Under the pieces are notes generated by a model. The model had not been told where the DNA came from. It ran no database searches and saw nothing but the letters and a program-made list of their open reading frames with translations. From an uncultured Holophagales bacterium (GTDB lineage: Bacteria > Acidobacteriota > Thermoanaerobaculia > Multivoradales > UBA5704): a DNA stretch of 64,000 bases. Each line of letters begins with the position of its first letter. Position 1 is the stretch's first letter. Shown here one piece after another: positions 53,160 through 64,000 of the stretch. A program made the translations under genes and the position numbers. Where the stretch lies: positions 39,156 to 103,155 of the forward strand of contig CAWJGT010000022.1 of the NCBI GenBank assembly GCA_963842525.1, read 5' to 3'.

Positions 53160-54449
53160 TCAGGGAGGTGCGGCGGCTGCCGGGGCGAGCCGCAGCTCGA
53201 AGCCTTCGAGGTCGCTGTCGGCCACGTGCACGGGCTCGGGCGGGGAAGCCCCGAAGCCTCTGGCACTGGCGGAGAGCCGGTAGTCCCCAGCCCGAACCGG
53301 AAGGACGAAGGTCCCGTCGACGCGGCTGACGCCGCGTACGAGGCCCTCGGGATCGTCGGCCACCAGGAAGACGTCCGCGCCGGCCACCGGCGCTCCGGTC
53401 GGATCGGTCACCCGCCCGGCGACCTGGGATGTGCGCTCGAACCGCAGGTCCAGGCTCTGCAAGCCGGGTCGGACCGCCATGCGGATCCAGGCTTTCCGTC
53501 TCCGTGACTCCGCCAGGACGGTATGGGGTCCGGCCTCCAGCCCCTCCAGCCGGTACCGCCCGTCTCCGTCGGCCGATGTGCTTGACTGTCGGGACAAAGT
53601 CGGTGTGGAACGAGATGCCGTCGATGCTGTTCGGGACCTCCGCCTTGCGGGCCGTCACCGCGGCCCCGGGGACGGGATTCCCCTGCTCGTCGAGCACGCG
53701 GCCTTCGAGCACCGCACCCTTGTCCAGGGCGATTTCGATCGGCCCGGCCTCGGCCCTCTGTGAGAGCTGGATGCCTTGGACGAGCCGCGCCCTGTAGCCC
53801 TGCGCCCAGACCCTGATGGTCACGGAGCCTGGCCTGACGACCGGCATCCGGAAGCTCCCGTCCTGCCTGGATGCCACCACCGAGGTCCAGGCTTCGGCGG
53901 CGTCCTCGTCCAGGCGGGCCCGGATGTCCGCTCCGGAGATCGGCTCTCCTGCCGGCCCGACCACCCGGCCTGTGAGGACTGGAGCCTCCTCCAGCACGAT
54001 CCGCAGCGGCTCGCGGGTCGGGGCCTCCACGTCCAAGGCTCTGCCCGGGAGGTATCCCTCCAGACGGATATGGAGGTCGTACCGGTCCCCCGGGCGGAGC
54101 CCTGTGAGGCGGAAGCGGCCGTCGGGGCCGGCTACTCCTCCCTCAGGGTAGAAGACTTTCCACGAGTCTCCTCCGGCGGAGCCGAGGACGAGAACATCGG
54201 GCTGGCGCGGGCTCCCGGCAGCGGCTCCCCGCGCGCATCCACCACCCGTCCCTCGATCCAGGAGTCGGCGAGAGCCGGATCGTCCTTTCCTGCGAGCCGC
54301 AGACGGGCCGTCTCTCCGGGCGACCGGGCCTGGAAGAGCGACACCCGGGCCGGGCCGCATTGCGAGGGGAGCTCGACCCGGCCTGAGATCCAGACGGGCT
54401 CGGCGAGGGCCGGGGTGGCGAGGGTGAGGAGGAGGAGAAACGACCTCAC
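53160..54449 (-). CDS. Carboxypeptidase-regulatory-like repeat protein, two frameshifts
   Basis: Repeated GRVVD..GEPLPGA, GRVLDEQGNPVPGA and GRVTDPTGAPVAGA units across three frames; GTG start at the repeat edge. Confidence 0.75.
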
Positions 54450-54511
54450 CCCCTGTCCCCCTCTCCCATCGCCCCACCCCCGACCGGGAGAGGGGGGACG
54501 CATGCGGAGCG
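54443..54511. repeat. Family-1 repeat, left arm, near-identical to the pbpC copy
   Basis: CCTCACCCCCTGTCCCCCTCTCCCATCGCCCC..CGACCGGGAGAGGGGGGACGCATGCGGAGCG. Confidence 0.88.
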
Positions 54512-54563
54512 TTCAAGGCAAGGTCGAGGTAATCTTGTGGGGGGCTCGCGTGTCTGAAGAGGC

Positions 54564-55400
54564 ATGAGACCTCCAAGCTTCCAAACCGACGCTGCTCAGA
54601 CTCGCTCGCGCCTCCACTGGCGGCTCGGGCTGGCCGCTCTGGTTTTTCTTCTTCCATGGACCGCCTCGGCGCTCGACCGGGCGCGCTTCACCGCCGCACC
54701 CGAGCCCGGCCGCGCGGAGGCGTTCGCCGTGCGCCTGGACGACGACATGCTGATGTCCGGCCGCCTGGGAGACCTGGCGCGGATCCAGAGCCTGCGCAAC
54801 TCGCTCGACGGAGATTTCGTCTGGATGCGCCATGAGGGCCGCGAGTACGTCATTCAAAACCCGGACCTGCTGGGGCAGATCGACGAGCTGTGGTCGACAG
54901 GGAACGAGCCCCTGGTCCGCGAGGAGCAGGAGCTGGCCGAGGGCCGCGGCGCGCTCCTCGAGCAAGAAAAGAAAGACCTCGCGCGGCGCCGGGAGGAGAT
55001 CCGCCAGGAGCAAGACCGGGTCTCCAGCGAGGAGAGCCGCCTTTCCGACGAGCACAGCGCGCTGTTCTGGCGTAAGTTCGATCTGGATATACGGTTGCCG
55101 TTTACCGAGAGTGAAGAGGTCGCCTGCATGCTGCGGCGGGAGATCGACGACATCGACGCACAGCTCCGGGACGTCGAAACCCGCCAGGACAGGAAAGAAA
55201 AAGAAGCCGACGAGCTCGACCGCCGGATGGACGAGCTCTACCTGGAAGAGAAGGAGCTCAAGCACGAGGAAAACGCGATCGAAATGGTGCAGCGCCAGAT
55301 CGATGCGCGGCGCGACGATCGCCTCCGCACGCTCGATGCAACGCTGCTCCGCCTGCTCGAGCAGGCGATCGCCGACGGCACCGTTCAACCGTTGAAGTAA
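54564..55400 (+). CDS. Secreted coiled-coil hypothetical protein
   Basis: Signal peptide, FVWMRHEGREYVIQNP, long E/K/R heptads. Confidence 0.7.
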   Translation: MRPPSFQTDAAQTRSRLHWRLGLAALVFLLPWTASALDRARFTAAPEPGRAEAFAVRLDDDMLMSGRLGDLARIQSLRNSLDGDFVWMRHEGREYVIQNPDLLGQIDELWSTGNEPLVREEQELAEGRGALLEQEKKDLARRREEIRQEQDRVSSEESRLSDEHSALFWRKFDLDIRLPFTESEEVACMLRREIDDIDAQLRDVETRQDRKEKEADELDRRMDELYLEEKELKHEENAIEMVQRQIDARRDDRLRTLDATLLRLLEQAIADGTVQPLK

Positions 55401-55565
55401 GGGGCATGTGACGCGGCGTGTCATAGCCCAGCGTCAGCTCGCGCTGGGCGCTTCAGGGCGGTAGGCTCTCGTGCTCGATCAGGGCTCAATGCTTGTCTTA
55501 CTGTAGAGGGTGGCGCGAAAGTCTTTACCAGCGAACACGATCGACCGGCTGGTGATCCGTGGCCT

Positions 55566-55592
55566 GTCGTGTCATCCTGAGCGCAGGGATCT
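55566..55592. repeat. Family-3 REP-like end
   Basis: GTCGTGTCATCCTGAGCGCAGGGATCT, abutting the kinase stop. Confidence 0.75.
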
Positions 55593-57264
55593 ACATGCCG
55601 GATTCGGACGAGACGGGGGAGACGCGGCTGGCGCCGTAATCCGCGATTCCGGCGAGCAGAGCTTCGAGAACCTGGAAGTCCACCGGCTTGACCAGATGAT
55701 GATCGAAACCCGCCTCCCGCGAACGGCGGCGGTCGTCCTCCTGCCCCCATCCCGTCAAGGCAATCAGCACCGTATCCTCCAGCCCAGGCTGCGCCCGCAC
55801 CCGGCGGGCGACTTCGTAGCCGTCCATCCCCGGCAGGCCGATGTCGAGCAGAACCACCGCCGGATGCCAGGCGCCGATCGCGGCGAGCGCGGACGGGCCG
55901 TCGCCGGCGACCTGGACTTCGTTCCCGCGGATTTCCAGGAGCGTGCCGAGGCTCTCGGCTGCGTCCCGGTTGTCATCCACGATCAGGATACGGCGCGCGG
56001 CCGGCGCGGCGGTGTGCAAGCGGTCCTCCCGCCGTCCTTCCTCCGAGCTGGGACGGACCTCCGGAGCGAGCGGCAGGCGGACGACGAGCTCGCTGCCCTG
56101 CCCGGGGCCGTCGCTATCGGCGTGAATCGTGCCGCCGTGCATCTGGACCAGGCTGCGGGCCAGGGTCAGCCCGATCCCCAGCCCTCCCTGGGCGCGGCCG
56201 AGCGAGCGGTCGGCCTGCGCGAACATCTCGAAGATGCGGGGCAACATCTCCGCGGGGATGCCGATGCCGCTGTCCCGCACGCGGAGGACGGCCTCGATCC
56301 CGTCGCGCTCGGCAGTGAGCCAGATCCGGCCGCCGGGGTCGGTGTACTTGGCGGCGTTGTTGAGGAGGTTTGCCACCACCTGGGCCAGACGGACGGGATC
56401 GGCGTCGAGGACCAGCGGCTCGGGGGACAGATTGACCGTCAGCTCATGGCACGACGCCTCGATCAGCGGAGAGCTGGTCTCGATCGCATTCTGCACGACG
56501 GCCGCGAGGTCGATCCTCTCCTTGCGGAGATCGATCTTGCCGCGGGTGATCCGGGAGACCTCCAGCAGGTCGTCGACGAGATGCACCATGTGCCGGACCT
56601 GGCGCTCCATCATCTCTTGGACCCGCTCGCTGCTGCCGGTCATCCGCAGGATCTGCAGGGCGTTGCTGAGCGGCGCCAGGGGATTGCGCAGCTCGTGGGC
56701 CAGCATCGCCAGGAATTCGTCCTTGCGACGGTCGGCCTCCGCCAACTGCTCAACCCTCCGGTTGCGCTCCTCCTCCACCCTCCTGCGCTGGAGCACGATC
56801 GCCGCCTGGTTGGCCGCGATGCCGAGCAGCAGGCGGTCGGTCTCGCCCGGGAACTCCGGCCGCCGCGAGCCCACGGCCAGGACTCCGCAATCTCCCGCGA
56901 TCCCGATCGGGACGATGACGGTCTGCAGCGGCCCGTCCGCCGAGGGATCGGGGATGGCGACGAGGTGGCCGGAATGTCCGGGCTCCAGCCAGGGTGCCAG
57001 AGCACTGCGGATGTCTTGTGCCTGTTCGAGGGTGGCCTGCCGGGGGCCGGTGTAGGCGACCTCGAACGGAGCCGTTTCGGGCGAGCCCGCCACCCGGATG
57101 AAGATCAGGTCCAGGTGCAGGGTGCGCTGGAGGACGTCGGCCAGGTGCTCGGCGATGCCGTGCGCGTCAAAGGAGCTCCAGACCGCGGGCAGCGCCGAGA
57201 GGGCCACCAGGTCGCGGATGCAGCGGCGGAGCTCCTGGACCTCATCCGCTTTCGCCGGCTGCAT
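55591..57264 (-). CDS. Hybrid sensor histidine kinase/response regulator (GAF-HisKA-HATPase-REC)
   Basis: LAHELRNPL, NLLNNAAKYT, GGLGIGL, ILIVDDN..LDIGLPGMDG..KP. Confidence 0.96.
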   Translation of the reverse strand: MQPAKADEVQELRRCIRDLVALSALPAVWSSFDAHGIAEHLADVLQRTLHLDLIFIRVAGSPETAPFEVAYTGPRQATLEQAQDIRSALAPWLEPGHSGHLVAIPDPSADGPLQTVIVPIGIAGDCGVLAVGSRRPEFPGETDRLLLGIAANQAAIVLQRRRVEEERNRRVEQLAEADRRKDEFLAMLAHELRNPLAPLSNALQILRMTGSSERVQEMMERQVRHMVHLVDDLLEVSRITRGKIDLRKERIDLAAVVQNAIETSSPLIEASCHELTVNLSPEPLVLDADPVRLAQVVANLLNNAAKYTDPGGRIWLTAERDGIEAVLRVRDSGIGIPAEMLPRIFEMFAQADRSLGRAQGGLGIGLTLARSLVQMHGGTIHADSDGPGQGSELVVRLPLAPEVRPSSEEGRREDRLHTAAPAARRILIVDDNRDAAESLGTLLEIRGNEVQVAGDGPSALAAIGAWHPAVVLLDIGLPGMDGYEVARRVRAQPGLEDTVLIALTGWGQEDDRRRSREAGFDHHLVKPVDFQVLEALLAGIADYGASRVSPVSSESGM

Positions 57265-57943
57265 CGGGCGCGACCCTCATCCCTTCCGACCTGGGAGGCG
57301 TACTGGCAGGAGAGCCCGGGCCCTCCCGCTCGCGGAGCTCGCGCAGGAACTCGTCCGGCGGGACGAAGAAGGGGTTCTCCTGCAGGATGCCTCCCAGGAT
57401 GACCATGGGATGGGTGCGGAGGATGTCGAGCACGATCCCGGCGCCAAACTTGGCGCAGTCGTACGTTCAGACCACGGCATCGTCATACTTGGGGAGGATG
57501 TAATTGAGCCGGGCCTCGTACGCCACGATATCGTTCACTCCCGGCCGGTCCTCCAGCGCCCACTCCATGTTAGCCACCAGGCGGGTCAGGGGGAATCCCT
57601 GGGACTTGCCGCCGTTCAGGACCACCTCGATCAGCGCGAGCATGGCATCCTGGTCGAAGTGCCCCTCCCGGAGATACGCCTCCTCCCACGGGAGGACCTC
57701 CAACTGGCCCGCGTCCTGAGCCGTTGTGACGTCGATGCCAGCCTGTGCCAGGTGCCGCAGGTGGTCCGCGCGGCGCCTCCCGTCGACGATATGGAAGGCC
57801 TTGTCCCCCACCTCGAAGCCCTCCTGGATGAAGGGCAGGAGGACGCGGTACTCCTCGTCCTTGCTGTTGAAAAAGGCGCAAACGTGCCGCGAGCGGTCGA
57901 GGACGGACCCCGCCAAACGCACAGCTTCTCTCGCATGGACCAT
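57242..57943 (-). CDS. MEDS-domain sensor protein with in-frame TGA (candidate selenocysteine) at 57467-57469
   Basis: RHVCAFF, RLVANMEWAL, YEARLN, DAVV*TYDCAKFG continuing in the same frame to LRTHPMVI..ENPFFVPPDEFL. Confidence 0.88.
57431..57463 (-). promoter_or_regulatory. Putative bacterial SECIS hairpin
   Basis: mRNA UGA-ACG-UACGA-CU-GCGCCA-AGUU-UGGCGC-CGGGA-UCGUG; loop 16 nt from UGA with G at loop position 2. Confidence 0.6.
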
Positions 57944-58126
57944 AAGCTCCTCCTTCAGATGCAAGCTGATTCCGGCTCCAGAGAACCCTTCGCGCTTCCT
58001 TCTTGCCCAGTATAGTCTCAAGGGCCTCTGGGCTCATCGCGACGGCGAACGGGTCTGGGACCTCGCCGAATCGCTGCGGGCTCCGGCCGGTCCTGAGACC
58101 CTTCAGGGCCGCTCTCGATGCGTAAC

Positions 58127-58630
58127 GGACGGTCCTCGACGCGGTCCGGACGGTCCTCGATGGATTTCGAACCATCCGGAACGCCCAGCGGACGTTCCTC
58201 AACGCGTTGAGAACCGTCCGATATGCATAAAGGACGGTGCGAAAGGCGAAAAGGACGATTCGCAACGCGTTCCGGATCGTCCGTTGCGCCTTCAGAACCG
58301 TCCGCAAGGCATTCAGGACCGTCCGAAACACATATCGAACGATCCTCGATGCGTTCAGGACCATCCGGAACGCCTATCGGACGGTCCTCAAGGGGCACAG
58401 GACCGTCCGCAACGCGAAGAGGATGGTGCGGAACGCATTCAGAACCATCCGCTGCGCACTCGGAACCGTCCTCAACGCGTTCAGAACCGTCCGGAACGCC
58501 TAACAGATGACCCTCGATGGGTTCAGAACCGTCCGCTTCGCGTGCAGAGCGCCCCGCATCGCAGGAAAGACCGTCCGCTCCCTGTGGAGAGCCGCTCGGA
58601 CTGCGAGGAGAACTGTCCGCTTCCGGGCCG
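58127..58630. repeat. 21-bp-period degenerate tandem array (~24 units)
   Basis: Consensus approx. GRACSRTCCGNAACGCNTTCA; reads RTV(R/L)NAF on both strands. Confidence 0.9.
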
Positions 58631-58673
58631 GGAATCCGTTGCAGCAAGTTGCCATCTTTGGTAGCTTGGACGC

Positions 58674-59315
58674 ATGAAGTTCGAGCGGCTGCTGGAGACC
58701 GTAGGGGACGAGCCGGTCTTCGAGCCTGGGCTCCTCCTGGCAGGCGACGTCGATCCTGCCGATGTCCGCCGCCAACTCTCGCGCTGGGTCGAGGCCGGCC
58801 GCCTCTACCAGCTCCGCCGCGGCCTCTACGCCCTGGCGCCGCCGTACCAGAAGGTCAAGCCCCATCCGTTCCTGGTCGCCAACCGCCTCGTCCGGGGCTC
58901 CTACGTAAGCCTCCAGTCGGCCCTGGCCCATTGCGGCCTGATTCCGGAGTACGTCCCGGTGACCACCAGCGTCACCACCTCTCGTCCGGCCCGCTGGGAT
59001 ACGCCCCTGGGGATCTACGACTTCCGGCACATCCAGAGCGAGCACCTGCGGGGTTACAGGCGCACGGACCTGGGAGGCGAACAGGAGGCGTTCCTGGCCA
59101 CGCCCGAGAAGGCTCTCCTGGACCTGATCTATCTGGAGCCGGGCGCTGATGCGCCCGCCTACCTGAACGAGCTTCGTCTGCAGCACATGGAGGTTCTGGA
59201 CCTGGACGAGCTCCGAAGACAGGCGGAAGCTTTCGGGAAACCCAAGATCCTGCGCGCCGCTGAGCACGTGGCCCGGTTGGCGGAGACCGAAGCCATGGAG
59301 TACGAGGCTCTATGA
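58674..59315 (+). CDS. abiEi: Type IV TA antitoxin AbiEi-like
   Basis: QLSRWV..LRRGLY, SYVSLQSAL, ATPEKALLD. Confidence 0.9.
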   Translation: MKFERLLETVGDEPVFEPGLLLAGDVDPADVRRQLSRWVEAGRLYQLRRGLYALAPPYQKVKPHPFLVANRLVRGSYVSLQSALAHCGLIPEYVPVTTSVTTSRPARWDTPLGIYDFRHIQSEHLRGYRRTDLGGEQEAFLATPEKALLDLIYLEPGADAPAYLNELRLQHMEVLDLDELRRQAEAFGKPKILRAAEHVARLAETEAMEYEAL

Positions 59316-60118
59316 AAGAGGATCTGCGGAATCTGGTCCGCGGGGCTAAGGGTGCGACGGACGCCCGGAACCGCATCCGCGAGTACCTCCAGGCTCGGAT
59401 TCTCGGGTCGCTCCAGCGCTCCGGCGCCATGATCCCCCTGGCGTTTCAGGGGGGCACGGCCCTGCGCTTTCTCTACTCGATCCGAAGGTACTCGGAAGAC
59501 CTCGACTTCGCTCTCGAGCGGCCGGACCGCGGATACGACTTCCGGAGCTACCTCAAGAATATCCGCAGCGATCTTCAGCAGGAGGGTTACGAAATCGAGC
59601 TCAAGGCCAACGATGCCAGGACCATCCACAGCGCCTTCATCGGCTTCACCGGTCTTCTGTTCGAGGTGGGCGTCTCACCTCACCGAAACGAAAAGCTCTC
59701 CGTCAAGCTGGAGGTCGACACCCGCCCTCCGGCCGGAGCGGTTCTGGAGACCACCATTATCCGCAGGCATCTGACGTTGCAGCTTCAGCACCACGACCGG
59801 GCTTCTCTTTTAGCCGGAAAGCTTCACGCGATCCTCCAGCGTACCTATCCAAAGGGCAGGGACATCTACGACCTGATCTGGTATCTGAGCGACCCCACCT
59901 GGCCCGCGCCCAATCTCCTCCTGCTCAACAATGCCCTGGAGCAGACCGGCTGGCCCGGTCCATCGCTGACCGAGCGGACCTGGCATTCAACAGTGGCCGA
60001 ACGAGTTCAGCTCCTCGGCTGGAAGCGGATTGAGGTAGACGTTCAGCCGTTCCTCGAATCCTCCCATGAGCTAAGTCTGCTGACCCGAGAGAACATCGTC
60101 CGGCTGCTGAGTGATTGA
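59312..60118 (+). CDS. abiEii: AbiEii/AbiGii nucleotidyltransferase toxin
   Basis: FQGGTALR..RYSEDLDF, KLEVD, GKLHA, KGRDIYDL; ATGA overlap. Confidence 0.94.
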   Translation: MKEDLRNLVRGAKGATDARNRIREYLQARILGSLQRSGAMIPLAFQGGTALRFLYSIRRYSEDLDFALERPDRGYDFRSYLKNIRSDLQQEGYEIELKANDARTIHSAFIGFTGLLFEVGVSPHRNEKLSVKLEVDTRPPAGAVLETTIIRRHLTLQLQHHDRASLLAGKLHAILQRTYPKGRDIYDLIWYLSDPTWPAPNLLLLNNALEQTGWPGPSLTERTWHSTVAERVQLLGWKRIEVDVQPFLESSHELSLLTRENIVRLLSD

Positions 60119-60264
60119 CCGCCGTTTGAGCTCGGCCATAGATGTCTCGGTCAAGCGTAGCTCTCACACAGCGGATCCTTTCTGACGACCCAAAGATACT
60201 ATAGATGGCACCAATGCGCATCTGCAAGGGTGTTGAAATCCAGCGTTCTGTGCTCTATATTTAG

Positions 60265-62095
60265 TTAGGTCCGGAAGACAGCGAAGTTATCGAAGCGGTA
60301 TCGCCCACGGCTGACCGCCACAATCCCCACCTGATCCCCCCAGAGAGGGTTAGGCTCCTCGATCGTCTTGACGCGCTGCTCGTTGATGTACAGATGGATC
60401 GAATGCCCGGCTCCGAGTATAGCCAGCCGGTTGAGTTCCCCGGTGCGGATCGCCGTAGAGAGTTCGCTATAGACTAGGCCGAAGCCTTGGGCATCGAAGC
60501 GATAGAAGGCGAAGCTCTGCCCGGGTTTCAGCAGAAACGCGTAGTAGCATCCAGTTCGCGAGTCGCAGCGATAGAGGAGCCCCGCTCCCGCTAAGTCCGG
60601 TTCCCGGGCCACGCTTTCGATTGCGACCTCGACAGAAACAGGCGCCTCAGAGAGATTGAGCATGTTATCGCTCAGACAAAAGTACTTGATGTCTTCGCGC
60701 TTGCCATCGTTAATCAATACATAGCCGCCTTCGACAAATACACCTGTCCATGCGCCCCGCCGGCCGGTGAGAAGTGAGTTGCTTGGCGTGGTTTCGCGCG
60801 CCGCCTTAAGCCGTGTAGGAGGAGTGAAGTCAACGATAAACAGGGGCTGCATATCCGCCCAGACCACTCAGACAAAATCTTCATTCACTCCGTCGGCATG
60901 GCCCCGCGCTTCGGCGTTTTGCGCGCTTGGTGCAAAGAGCCGCCCGTCAGGGACGTTCAGGAAGAGAGCTGGCGTCGCCCATTCAAAGGAGTAGGGAGCC
61001 GCGCGATAGATCGCAAGGCGGCCCTCGGACGCCGCCCTATCAACCGGATCGCCGGCCGGCTAGAGCTGAGTAGAACGCTCCACTGAAGCAGATTGCGGCC
61101 TCGTCGGAAATCGGAAACTGCATGGCGAGCACGGAAGGAACACCCCGCATAACCAGAGCGTTGGCGACGCCTGTATAGGGTCTTGGCCCGATCGGCGGGA
61201 GAATGCTGCGCTCTGGCAGGCATTGAGGACAACGAGGCGCAGGGACCGAATACCGCGTAGGGTCTCTCCCAAGACTTCCCCTGCAACTGGAGCACTCCAT
61301 CCGGTCTCGTCTTCGAAAAGCAGCACCCCTTTGTCCGCGTCAAAGTCTCCATGCCCCATGAAGTGCAGCACCTCATATGCACCGTCCCGCAGCTTCTGAT
61401 AGACATTTTCAATGCCGGCGTGCTCTATGAAATCGACAGTGACTCCAGAGGTTCGAGCCCAGGCCGCCTCGATCCGTCGTCTCTCGGCTGGCAGATCGAG
61501 GGCCTGGGCATCGGTGGGGCTCGCCATCGCAACTAGAATACGCAAAGGTCCCATGATCGGAAGCGCACGGCTGGGTTGCTGGACATTGAGGAAGCGGCAT
61601 ACCGGCGTCCGCACATCCCGTGCAAGAAAATGGCGAGTCTGAGGGCGATAGAGCAGCTCCCAGGGAAGAGCGCAGAGAGGGGCGATCTCGGGCCGTGAGG
61701 GATCGAGGACCAGTCTTATGCGAAGGCCAGCCTCCGGCTGGGCCTCGACCAAACCAAGGCTCGACAAGTATCTCTCGCGTACCGTGCCGTGAAGAGAGCT
61801 TCGAATAGGACTTCTCCCACGGTCAGGGCTATCGGATTAGGAGCACCCTCTGGACTAAGGGGAGTTTCCGCCTCTACAAGCGTTAGATGCCTAGCCTGCG
61901 CGCTGGCTGTCGAGCCGCACCGACACACCGAGTTCTCCAATTCCGTAAGTAGCTCCTGCATCTCGTCGCCGGCAAGCGGCAAGTTGAAGCGAGCCTCGCC
62001 CCCTCCATAAGGCGAGCGCAGCAACCGCACCCGAAAGTCACTCCCGTCGGCCTCTAAGGTGAGGGCGAAGTCTCATAGTGGGTGCTACTATGGCC
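60265..62095 (-). pseudogene. CHAT (caspase-like) domain protein with C-terminal beta-sandwich, multiply frameshifted
   Basis: LPWELL, VLHFMGHG, LVVLNAC, VLAMQFPISD spread across several frames. Confidence 0.8.
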
Positions 62096-62248
62096 AACTC
62101 TCTGCCCGCGCTCCGGTGTCGTCATCTTTGTCATCCCCAAGCAAGTCAACGAGTCTACCACATCCTCACGTCCACTGAGACTATGGACACCCATCGAGAT
62201 CTCGCTTAGAGTAGACATCTGCACCAGGATACATGGGGAGGAACCCTT

Positions 62249-63366
62249 ATGGGAGGATCTGATCTTCTCGCGCATCGAAGGCCCGATGAGACGCAGCCTA
62301 TCTCGGGGAATGTGGTCACGCCTATGGTAAATGGAGAGGCAGCGTACCCACAGATGCTTGCTGCCACGAGAACGCGCGCTGCTCAATATCACTCGCGACA
62401 TACTATTTTGCCAACGACAAAGTCGGAGACCTCTTTTGCGGTACACTTGCAGCAGCCGTCGCGAGGGGAGTTAAAGTTCGAGTGCTGATCGACGGCCGGC
62501 TCTCTTTTCGCAGGATGTTCCTCAGGCTCAGGAAGTGCGGATTACGGTCCGCCATCTCTTGCTACCCCGTAGGACTCGCAATTTGTCTCCCGATATCGTA
62601 GGAGGATTCTCATAGTAGATGGCCGTTTTGGCTTTAGTGGGGGCATGACCATCAGGGCCGCTCAGATGGTTAAGAGTGGAGATCCGAAGGTTAATCAGGA
62701 TGTGCACTTCAGAATCGAGGGTCCAATTCGACCTCATTCTTTCAAAGTTTGTTCACAAGGGATTGGCATGATGTCTCAAGTGAGCTTCTTGAGGGAGAGG
62801 AGTGGTACCCACTCTTGGAGCGTCATGGTGACGCAACTGTGAGGCCTCTAGTTACCGGCCGCGGGTATCCGAGGGCCCTGCTTGAGACCTTTCTTTGCCG
62901 CGCGATTTCGTCCGCCAAGCAGCGAATAGATGTCGTGACTCCGTACTTCTTGCCCACAGATGCCTTGAGGAGCGCCTTGGTCGATGCCGTCAGAAGGAGA
63001 GTCATGGTGCGTCTTCTAATACCGCAATACAATTTTGCTGTAGTCGAGTGGGCATCGAATAGGCATTTAGAACTACTTCTCAAGGAGGGGTGTATAATTT
63101 TGGCCACCCCCCCGCCTTTTGACCATTCGAAGCTGATGACGATCGATGAAGATTGGTCTCTAATAGGATCAGCAAATTGGTACTCCTGGGAGCCTATTTG
63201 TAAACTCAGAAGTCAACTTCGAGGTGCATGACAACCGGCTCAGACAGCATCTGGGAAGGATAGTTGAAGAGAAGGCGGCTAAGGCGTTACCTGTAACACT
63301 TTCTAACGTTTCTACCGTTTCGAGAACAAAAAAGCTGCTTTGTTGGTTAATAGAAGCTTGGCTATG
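62249..63366 (+). pseudogene. Cardiolipin synthase/phospholipase D family, fragmented
   Basis: NGEAAYPQML, RGVKVRVLIDG, TPYFLP, HSKLMTID..GSANW in broken frames. Confidence 0.8.
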
Positions 63367-63389
63367 ATATATCAATCACGTTTAGATTT

Positions 63390-64000
63390 TCAATCACAGT
63401 CAAAACCTTTTCTGAGGAAGATTAATTTCCCGAACTGGTTTGTGTGGAGGTAGCGACAAACAATCCTAGCGACGTACTCAGGCGAGAGCATCGTCTCCGT
63501 TCTTGCCGAAGGATTTATTGTCTTTTGAAGACGCGTGTTTACCTTGCCAGGTGCGACGATGTTCACGACAAATTCCCTTAGATGCCAAGCGTGCTGCGTC
63601 AGATTCAACAAGTGCGTTAAGGGCCGCCTTAGAGGCAGAATAGATCGGTATCCCCTGGCGTCCCCATGCGGACGCTGTGGAGGAAATCAATACAATGTTG
63701 CCTTCCCACCTTCTTGATTCCGCTTGAGATAGAATATTAAAGCAGCTAAAGAAATTAACTCTCATAATATCTTCAGGTGACGCGTTATACTCGCCTGCTG
63801 TGTGGATCACAGCATTGCACGTGGTTAGCTCCGAAAAGCCCTGTTCGCGGTCGAGGTCGAGTTGCTGGTGGGTGGGCGCATTATAGGTTGCCCCGAGCTT
63901 TTCAAGCGCATCCATGCGTGACATTGCCGATGCCACCACTCCCGCCCAATACAAGGACATGGAGGCCATGGAGATCGGGAGGGTCTTCGGCGATTTCTTT
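63390..64000 (-). CDS. SDR family oxidoreductase, partial and frameshifted
   Basis: VIHTAG, LISST, YSASKAAL, VNIVAPGKVNT. Confidence 0.75.

Follow-up and report, generated by a model that had tools for sequence, protein, structure and literature searches.

An in-frame UGA at a conserved cysteine of a MEDS-domain protein: a predicted selenoprotein family encoded next to a GAF-containing hybrid histidine kinase in soil bacteria

We analysed a stretch of 64,000 nucleotides (the window) from an uncultured Holophagales bacterium of the Acidobacteriota (GenBank assembly GCA_963842525.1, contig CAWJGT010000022.1, positions 39,156 to 103,155 of the forward strand). Two genes on the minus strand of the window are the subject of this study: a gene for a MEDS-domain protein (57242-57943), which contains one in-frame TGA, and a gene for a hybrid histidine kinase of 557 amino acids (55591-57264). 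In a first-pass annotation, the TGA had been read as a selenocysteine (Sec) codon at a conserved cysteine of the MEDS domain. This reading is borne out by TGA in 75 of 80 related loci, a selenocysteine insertion sequence (SECIS) hairpin, the Sec machinery of the genome, and a ratio of nonsynonymous to synonymous substitution rates (dN/dS) of 0.085 after the TGA. Thus, the TGA at 57467-57469 is very probably a genuine Sec codon and the protein the member of a new selenoprotein family.

The MEDS gene is recovered as two open reading frame (ORF) pieces on the minus strand, 57467-58021 and 57242-57433. It had been claimed that both belong to the same frame and are split by the TGA only, and the sequence confirmed this. 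The true start is likely the ATG at 57943; a Shine-Dalgarno-like AAGGAGGAG (57947-57955, minus strand, as read from the sequence) lies 3 nt 5′ of it. From this start, the gene comprises 233 codons and a TGA stop (57242-57244), and the internal TGA is codon 159, at the position of the cysteine of the MEDS signature CxY. The read-through product around the TGA is ...KYDDAVV-U-TYDCAKFGAGIV... The Pfam MEDS profile (PF14417) matched the read-through protein with 140.6 bits (cut-off 29.8) and the DNA with 133.6 bits. The protein match covers the whole profile (1-161 of 161; residues 19-179) and therefore spans the TGA at codon 159.

A putative bacterial SECIS hairpin lies immediately 3′ of the TGA, within the coding sequence (57431-57463, minus strand), as judged from folding and orthologue comparison. 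In the predicted fold, it consists of a lower stem UACGA/UCGUG (57463-57459 with 57435-57431), an upper stem GCGCCA/UGGCGC (57456-57451 with 57446-57441), and an apical loop AGUU (57450-57447). The folding thus reproduced the stems and loop proposed at the outset, and the proposed spacing also agrees, the UGA and the loop being 16 nucleotides apart by our count. According to work on fdhF of E. coli, bacterial SelB recognises a small GU-containing apical loop a few nucleotides past the UGA. No Rfam model matched the hairpin, and the only match in 57300-57600 was a chance long noncoding RNA (E 0.35).

To follow the TGA in other bacteria, we searched 61 genomes (G000, the genome of the window with 9.95 Mb in 34 contigs, and 60 relatives). 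A MEDS orthologue with 71-84% identity and one internal TGA was found in 6 other genomes from 5 genera. In all six, the TGA is at the identical column, as KYDDAV[VC]-TGA-TYD, and the protein conservation continues beyond it. In addition, one genome of another family among the 61 has a stop-free orthologue with Cys at the TGA column. A scan with one genome per species then gave 381 related stretches, of which the best 80 loci (64-84% identity) are the basis of all counts out of 80. The codon at the Sec column of these loci is TGA in 75, TGC in 4, and TGT in 1, so that homologues with TGA/Cys pairs, as anticipated by the first-pass annotation, do exist. One of the 75 TGA loci (L101) comes from an unpublished genome, and the count is 74 of 79 if it is left out. 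By record title, the 75 TGA loci include 54 from Acidobacteriota (53 plus one 'Candidatus Acidoferrum' record carrying no phylum label), 12 from Planctomycetota, 3 from Pseudomonadota, and single metagenome-assembled genomes (MAGs) of six other phyla.

Meanwhile, a metagenomic protein collection contained 108 full-length homologues that matched the motif, with Cys at the column in 107 and Trp in one. The Trp homologue (I-W-TYDLAKFG) is most likely a Sec form that the depositor's gene caller translated under a code with TGA as Trp. The window's own product is present in this collection as a 158-residue fragment (P0013). In distant MEDS paralogues, which are fused to larger proteins, Cys occupies the column in 19 of 19 cases, in agreement with the earlier statement that MEDS domains carry Cys at this position (CxY). 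The true terminator was also TGA in 7 of the 7 Sec-form genes examined; thus, TGA has not been reassigned overall. Of 300 further genomes sampled evenly across the phylum, 35 had MEDS matches, and only 2 of the matches contained TGA. These two are stand-alone frames of just 224 and 248 amino acids, one of them in an unpublished genome (G132). In a tree of 187 Sec and Cys forms (FastTree topology), there were 14 changes between Sec and Cys, of which well-supported branches force only 1. One Gemmataceae MAG holds a Sec form (L066) plus a more divergent Cys form (L132).

The comparison of orthologues showed a conserved hairpin after the TGA, as had been predicted, with compensatory base changes. 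It is at the same place in every Sec form, in either of two registers: the K-type (43 sequences; ..GCC AAG UUU GGC G.., loop AGUU) and the Q-type (33 sequences; ..C CAG UUU GGN GC.., loop GUU). The apical loops predicted among the 76 Sec forms were AGUU in 39, GUU in 28, AGUUC in 5, GGUU in 1, and other loops in 3. In the Q-type, pair 29-33 is AU in 21 sequences and GC in 7, and all 7 changes from Gln to Arg (CGG) are paired with the Phe codon TTC, not TTT. Similarly, pair 26-36 (AU in 8, GC in 2, and UG in 1) corresponds to His, Arg, and Leu codons, which are matched by the wobble base of the opposite Gly codon. The covariation score of the Q-type was reached by 0 of 500 shuffles. In the K-type, 13 nucleotides (GCCAAGUUUGGCG) are invariant, including all synonymous sites, and 87.5% of cells are paired, compared with 32-62% in a control with the partners slid. 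Pair 23-38 of the K-type is UG in 25 sequences, with Leu..Gly codons, and GC in 7, with Cys..Ala codons.

The Phe codon of the loop also differs from its surroundings. It is TTT in 64 of the 76 Sec forms, whereas TTT accounts for 141 of the 748 Phe codons elsewhere in these genes (19%) and none of the 5 Cys forms has it at the loop position. The energy of the 33-nt hairpin was −13.9 ± 2.2 kcal/mol in the Sec forms (n = 76) but −6.8 kcal/mol in the Cys forms (n = 5), and the Cys forms encode FS or FD where the Sec forms have FG. As far as these aligned sequences and their predicted folds go, the hairpin with a GUU-containing loop is confined to the TGA forms, and the Cys forms are without it.

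Pairwise dN/dS among the 76 Sec forms was 0.063 in the stretch of 38 codons that leads up to the TGA, and 0.085 over codons +13 to +46. By these estimates, purifying selection is equally strong on both sides of the TGA. For the SECIS codons, dN/dS was 0.21, with dS at 0.92 versus about 1.4 elsewhere.

The first-pass annotation had named selA, selB, selC, and selD as the genes to look for, and all four were found in the genome of the window. The curated cut-offs were exceeded by selA (446 bits), selB (316 bits, or 361.6 bits together with a neighbouring in-frame piece), and selD (265.6 bits). The tRNA-Sec scored 71 bits with Rfam, and ARAGORN gave it the anticodon TCA. Furthermore, of the 44 Sec-form genomes that were tested, 42 had selA above the cut-off, as did 3 of the 5 Cys-form genomes.

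The stop of the MEDS gene falls 20 nt inside the kinase gene, so the two genes overlap. In the kinase (minus strand, GAF-HisKA-HATPase_c-REC), Pfam placed HisKA at 56539-56724 (56.7 bits), HATPase_c at 56065-56400 (98.6 bits), and REC at 55657-55989 (79.2 bits), all above their cut-offs. The N-terminal region (56755-57264) matched GAF_3 with 25.8 bits, just under the 27-bit cut-off. An AlphaFold2 model of the N-terminal 170 amino acids had a predicted local distance difference test (pLDDT) score of 91.7, and the top PDB matches listed were almost all GAF domains, with template modelling (TM) scores of 0.48-0.64. Thus, the kinase N-terminus is a GAF domain by its modelled fold and a marginal one by sequence.

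In 76 of the 80 loci, the MEDS gene is directly followed by a homologue of this GAF domain, which starts with the conserved motif LRRC[IV]R[DE]L.ALS.L...W. Two of the four loci without it end within about 300 nt. The kinase core comes after the GAF domain, in some loci behind extra domains. We also looked for a conserved upstream neighbour in the 80 loci and found none, the largest ORF cluster covering 16 of the 80. As the GAF kinase is kept downstream and nothing is conserved upstream, the unit is the MEDS-Sec gene plus the GAF kinase, and the coupling to the overlapping kinase gene that had been proposed from the window holds as adjacency in 76 of 80 loci. In the closest orthologue (L028/L053), about 245 nt are inserted between the MEDS gene and the kinase gene, whereas the window's genes overlap.

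The AlphaFold2 model of the MEDS protein (pLDDT 88.6, predicted TM score 0.83, from an alignment of 39 sequences) has an alpha/beta fold. Its best PDB matches in Foldseek were FlaH, SSO2452, and KaiC (E about 10−5, TM 0.49-0.57), and a sequence profile search gave weak matches to KaiC and SSO2452. The protein is thus predicted to have a KaiC/RecA-like fold, and the likeness is one of fold only. A Walker A motif (GxxxxGK[ST]) was sought after strand 1 (residues 20-25) and was not found; FFNSKDEEY is there instead. The GGKS at 111-114 is within a helix and is not conserved. The predicted KaiC/RecA-like fold of the MEDS protein has lost the Walker A motif. A sequence search of the PDB gave no solved MEDS structure (best E 0.17). 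No NCBIfam model matched the protein above its cut-off, the best being RsbA_anti_sig (NF041045) with 57.8 versus 210 bits.

In the model, H20-x-C22 is on the strand 20-25, and U159-x-Y161 is on the strand 156-162. These two strands should be neighbours, if the usual strand order of RecA folds applies. Both HxC and CxY are kept in 19 of the 19 distant MEDS paralogues, and their status as signatures is our reading of these alignments; Sec thus takes the place of one of these signature cysteines. The earlier suggestion of a UxxxC motif did not hold. At position +4 from Sec, 67 of the 75 Sec-form loci have Leu, only 6 have Cys, and the other 2 have Val, and the motif was rejected as a family feature. 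In addition, the +4 codon (TGC) belongs to the SECIS stem, where it pairs and covaries with the opposite codon, as TGC..GCC versus CTC..GGG. The position −1 is Cys in 32 of the 75 loci, which gives a CU doublet (many Cys forms have CC), and Ile, Val, or Thr in the rest. Judging from these alignments, better-conserved candidate partners of Sec159 would be the invariant Cys22 of HxC and the preceding Cys (32/75).

The module lies in a repeated region. Two further contig ends in the assembly carry copies of the terminal 9.5 kb of the window (54444-64000), C12:1752-11311 with 99.4% identity and C26:1-9505 with 97.7% identity and frameshifts. The MEDS gene of the C12 copy has the identical TGA, and that of the C26 copy is frameshifted yet keeps the TGA. 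The repeat could be a real duplication, or an artefact of assembly or of strains. As three contig ends share it, the number of modules that the organism carries is uncertain. An element of 82-84 nt at the left boundary of the repeat (54444-54527) recurs in C4, C34, and C22. The C12 copy (L015, G000:C12:6312-10010) is otherwise identical, but indels set it apart from the window copy over the initial ~100 nt of the kinase gene and put the kinase N-terminus into another frame, probably through assembly noise at the contig end.

Upstream of the MEDS gene is a tandem array of 21-nt units (58261-58499; ~11.4 copies with 63% matches), which gives rise to long spurious ORFs in several frames. Beyond it, 58674-60118 on the plus strand encodes an AbiEi-like antitoxin (PF13338, 25.3 bits) and an AbiEii nucleotidyltransferase toxin (PF08843, 96.8 bits), a type IV toxin-antitoxin pair divergent from the MEDS gene. 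A promoter and terminator scan of 55400-58300 found nothing that exceeded expectation.

It should be noted that several results weigh against the selenoprotein reading. The single-sequence fold of the hairpin was no better than chance (z = −0.66; 51 of 200 shuffles equal or better), and the significance of the hairpin thus comes only from the orthologue comparison. Furthermore, the covariation score of the K-type was 0.099 versus 0.093 in the shuffle control, a value reached by 125 of 500 shuffles. This is because 5 of the 7 upper-stem pairs never vary, and the argument for the K-type therefore comes from its frozen synonymous sites. Of the Sec-form genomes tested, one lacks selA (G108) and another has it fragmented (G094); both are MAGs. 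In fact, every carrier of the Sec form is a MAG, and the singleton phylum labels could be binning errors. The sequencing runs listed for the stretch are 4 soil-metagenome DNA runs, with shares ≤0.11 and no RNA run among them. They yielded only short contig pieces, of which one with 723 nt ends at 57470, too near its end to judge the TGA. In addition, what the analysis shows is the recoding signature, the SECIS, the Sec machinery, the synteny, and the folds; the Sec residue itself is predicted, and we infer the sensing chemistry, the contact of the MEDS protein with the GAF domain, and the proximity of Cys22 and Sec159.

These points bear on what else the TGA could be. A sequencing or assembly error at 57467 would fit the location at a contig end in an assembly with indel noise. 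However, the C12 and C26 copies and 75 other genomes all share the identical TGA, which leaves an error in this genome a negligible chance. It is also conceivable that a nonsense mutation from TGC or TGT to TGA killed the gene and that the two ORF pieces are remnants. The repeat at the three contig ends shows indel differences, its C26 copy is frameshifted, and the first-pass annotation had pointed to other broken genes in this genome, all of which would fit such decay. We nevertheless consider a pseudogene extremely improbable: the TGA occupies one column in 75 of 80 species-level loci, dN/dS past the stop is as low as reported above, a covarying hairpin is present, the remainder of the MEDS gene and the kinase are intact, and even the degraded C26 copy still has the TGA.

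If the gene is functional, the UGA might still be a genuine stop, which would leave a MEDS protein cut short at 158 residues, perhaps accompanied by a C-terminal peptide initiated separately from the GTG at 57433, or a site of read-through at which near-cognate decoding inserts Trp or Cys. Gene callers end the protein there, as the 158-residue fragment in the protein collection illustrates, and the single database homologue with W at this column was presumably translated under a different code. Moreover, Sec insertion is generally inefficient, so that some truncated product is expected. Against a stop, the frame and the protein conservation pass straight through the UGA and the GTG start is not needed, the GUU-loop hairpin and the frozen synonymous sites occur in TGA forms only, and the co-occurrence with selA is near-perfect. 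Against other read-through, the alternative residue is Cys rather than Trp, in 5 of 80 loci and in 107 of 108 proteins. We therefore regard a stop or non-Sec read-through as very unlikely. The last alternative accepts the Sec residue but makes the protein an enzyme, for instance a thiol/selenol oxidoreductase or a dehalogenase-like protein, whose kinase is merely co-regulated. Most selenoprotein families in the accessible part of the table of the review PMC13188914 are oxidoreductase-like, and the CU or CC doublet (32 of 75 Sec forms and many Cys forms) would suit such an activity. On the other hand, MEDS is known only from the regulators DcmR, EtnR2, and those of the RsbA type (available text of PMC11507031 and PMC11197473; for RsbA, the weak NF041045 match), the only conserved neighbour is the GAF domain of the kinase, and EtnR2/EtnR1 (below) is a precedent for a stand-alone MEDS protein with a GAF partner. 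An enzyme is thus unlikely.

Taking these results together, we consider it likely that a MEDS-Sec protein and a GAF kinase, as a whole, explain this locus. The gene at 57242-57943 would encode a stand-alone MEDS-domain protein in which UGA159 is read as Sec, and the hairpin, which starts 4 nt past the UGA and has a GUU-containing loop, would recruit SelB and tRNA-Sec. Sec would then take one of the two signature cysteine positions of MEDS, with CxY on strand 156-162 and HxC on strand 20-25. The MEDS-Sec protein and the downstream hybrid histidine kinase would work as a conserved two-gene module, with the GAF domain as the conserved part of the kinase. How this module might sense is a proposal that we hold to be about evenly balanced between right and wrong. 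The selenol at 159, alone or together with Cys22 or the preceding Cys, could be the sensing centre, through reaction with an oxidant or electrophile or through metal binding. The resulting change in the MEDS protein may alter its grip on the GAF domain of the kinase and so set autophosphorylation and the phosphorelay from HisKA to REC. Possibly, selenium supply also gates the amount of full-length sensor. More tentatively, and with a chance that we put slightly below even, this could be the first selenoprotein family for signal perception, a KaiC-like MEDS receptor that uses a selenol as sensing nucleophile and controls a two-component phosphorelay, and that probably reached soil Acidobacteriota, Planctomycetota, and others by horizontal transfer.

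Sec is used almost only where cysteine does demanding chemistry, and its presence at a signature MEDS cysteine points to the functional centre of the sensor domain. We offer the hypothesis of a selenol/thiol centre that senses an oxidant, electrophile, or metal. If it is true, a signalling protein joins a selenoproteome made mostly of redox enzymes, and selenium supply could set the output of a pathway. Since Sec marks cysteines that are critical for catalysis or chemistry, HxC and CxY would then be the sensing centre of the whole MEDS family. In addition, gene callers systematically truncate Sec-MEDS proteins at 158 residues in soil metagenomes. The family also provides a natural set of SECIS variants, with two registers, compensatory amino-acid changes, and the SelB of several phyla.

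In the literature searched, we found no paper that links MEDS or DcmR with selenocysteine. The review PMC13188914 (May 2026) does not use the terms PF14417, MEDS, DcmR, sensory, or histidine kinase, as far as its main text and its families table were available. Likewise, MEDS, DcmR, and 'histidine kinase' were absent from the main texts of PMC12013277, PMC13326102, and bioRxiv 10.1101/2022.07.06.499078; the supplementary tables of all four publications might list the family. In the available part of PMC8318568, 'a histidine kinase' is an unverified bSECISearch prediction from a marine deltaproteobacterium and not of the MEDS family. Sec-MEDS is almost certainly a widespread selenoprotein family of soil bacteria for which no description was found in this literature.

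With regard to known systems, the MEDS gene resembles the bacterial selenoproteins with a SECIS inside the ORF, whose archetype is E. coli FdhF and which include families discovered by searching for Sec/Cys pairs. The accessible text of PMC1976440 gives as criteria for a selenoprotein an in-frame UGA at a conserved Cys, a 3′ stem-loop, Sec genes, and Cys homologues. All of these were found here: the UGA is at a conserved Cys and is immediately followed by a stem-loop with G in the apical loop (here GU), the genome has selA, selB, selC, and selD, and Cys homologues exist. Unlike those proteins, the product here is predicted to be no oxidoreductase but a sensor module of the MEDS/KaiC-like kind, coupled to a histidine kinase.

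In structure, the MEDS model is nearest to KaiC, FlaH, and SSO2452, and profile matches to KaiC and SSO2452 are weak. However, the window protein is without Walker A and has HxC and C/UxY on the strands 20-25 and 156-162. KaiC also signals via a partner histidine kinase, SasA. The RsbA-type anti-sigma regulators (NF041045) share an N-terminal MEDS domain, and the match extends over residues 19-205, but it is far under the cut-off and the HATPase anti-sigma domain is lacking; the window protein is not a member of this family.

The closest described arrangement is that of Mycobacterium NBB4, where, according to the available text of PMC11197473, the stand-alone MEDS protein EtnR2 acts together with the GAF-containing EtnR1 in ethylene-oxide sensing. 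The likeness is drawn from the described architecture. DcmR is the regulator for dichloromethane in the accessible parts of PMC11507031 and PMC11197473, and the ligands of both systems are small electrophilic C1/C2 compounds; in the same parts, the binding or sensing of a small hydrocarbon derivative by MEDS is a predicted role only, the prediction dating from 2005. The output of EtnR1 is a PucR-type helix-turn-helix, whereas the partner in the window is HisKA-HATPase-REC, and no Sec is reported for EtnR2 or DcmR in these texts. Sec recoding is standard and the MEDS domain is known; the novelty would lie in a Sec residue at the heart of a sensor that feeds a two-component system.

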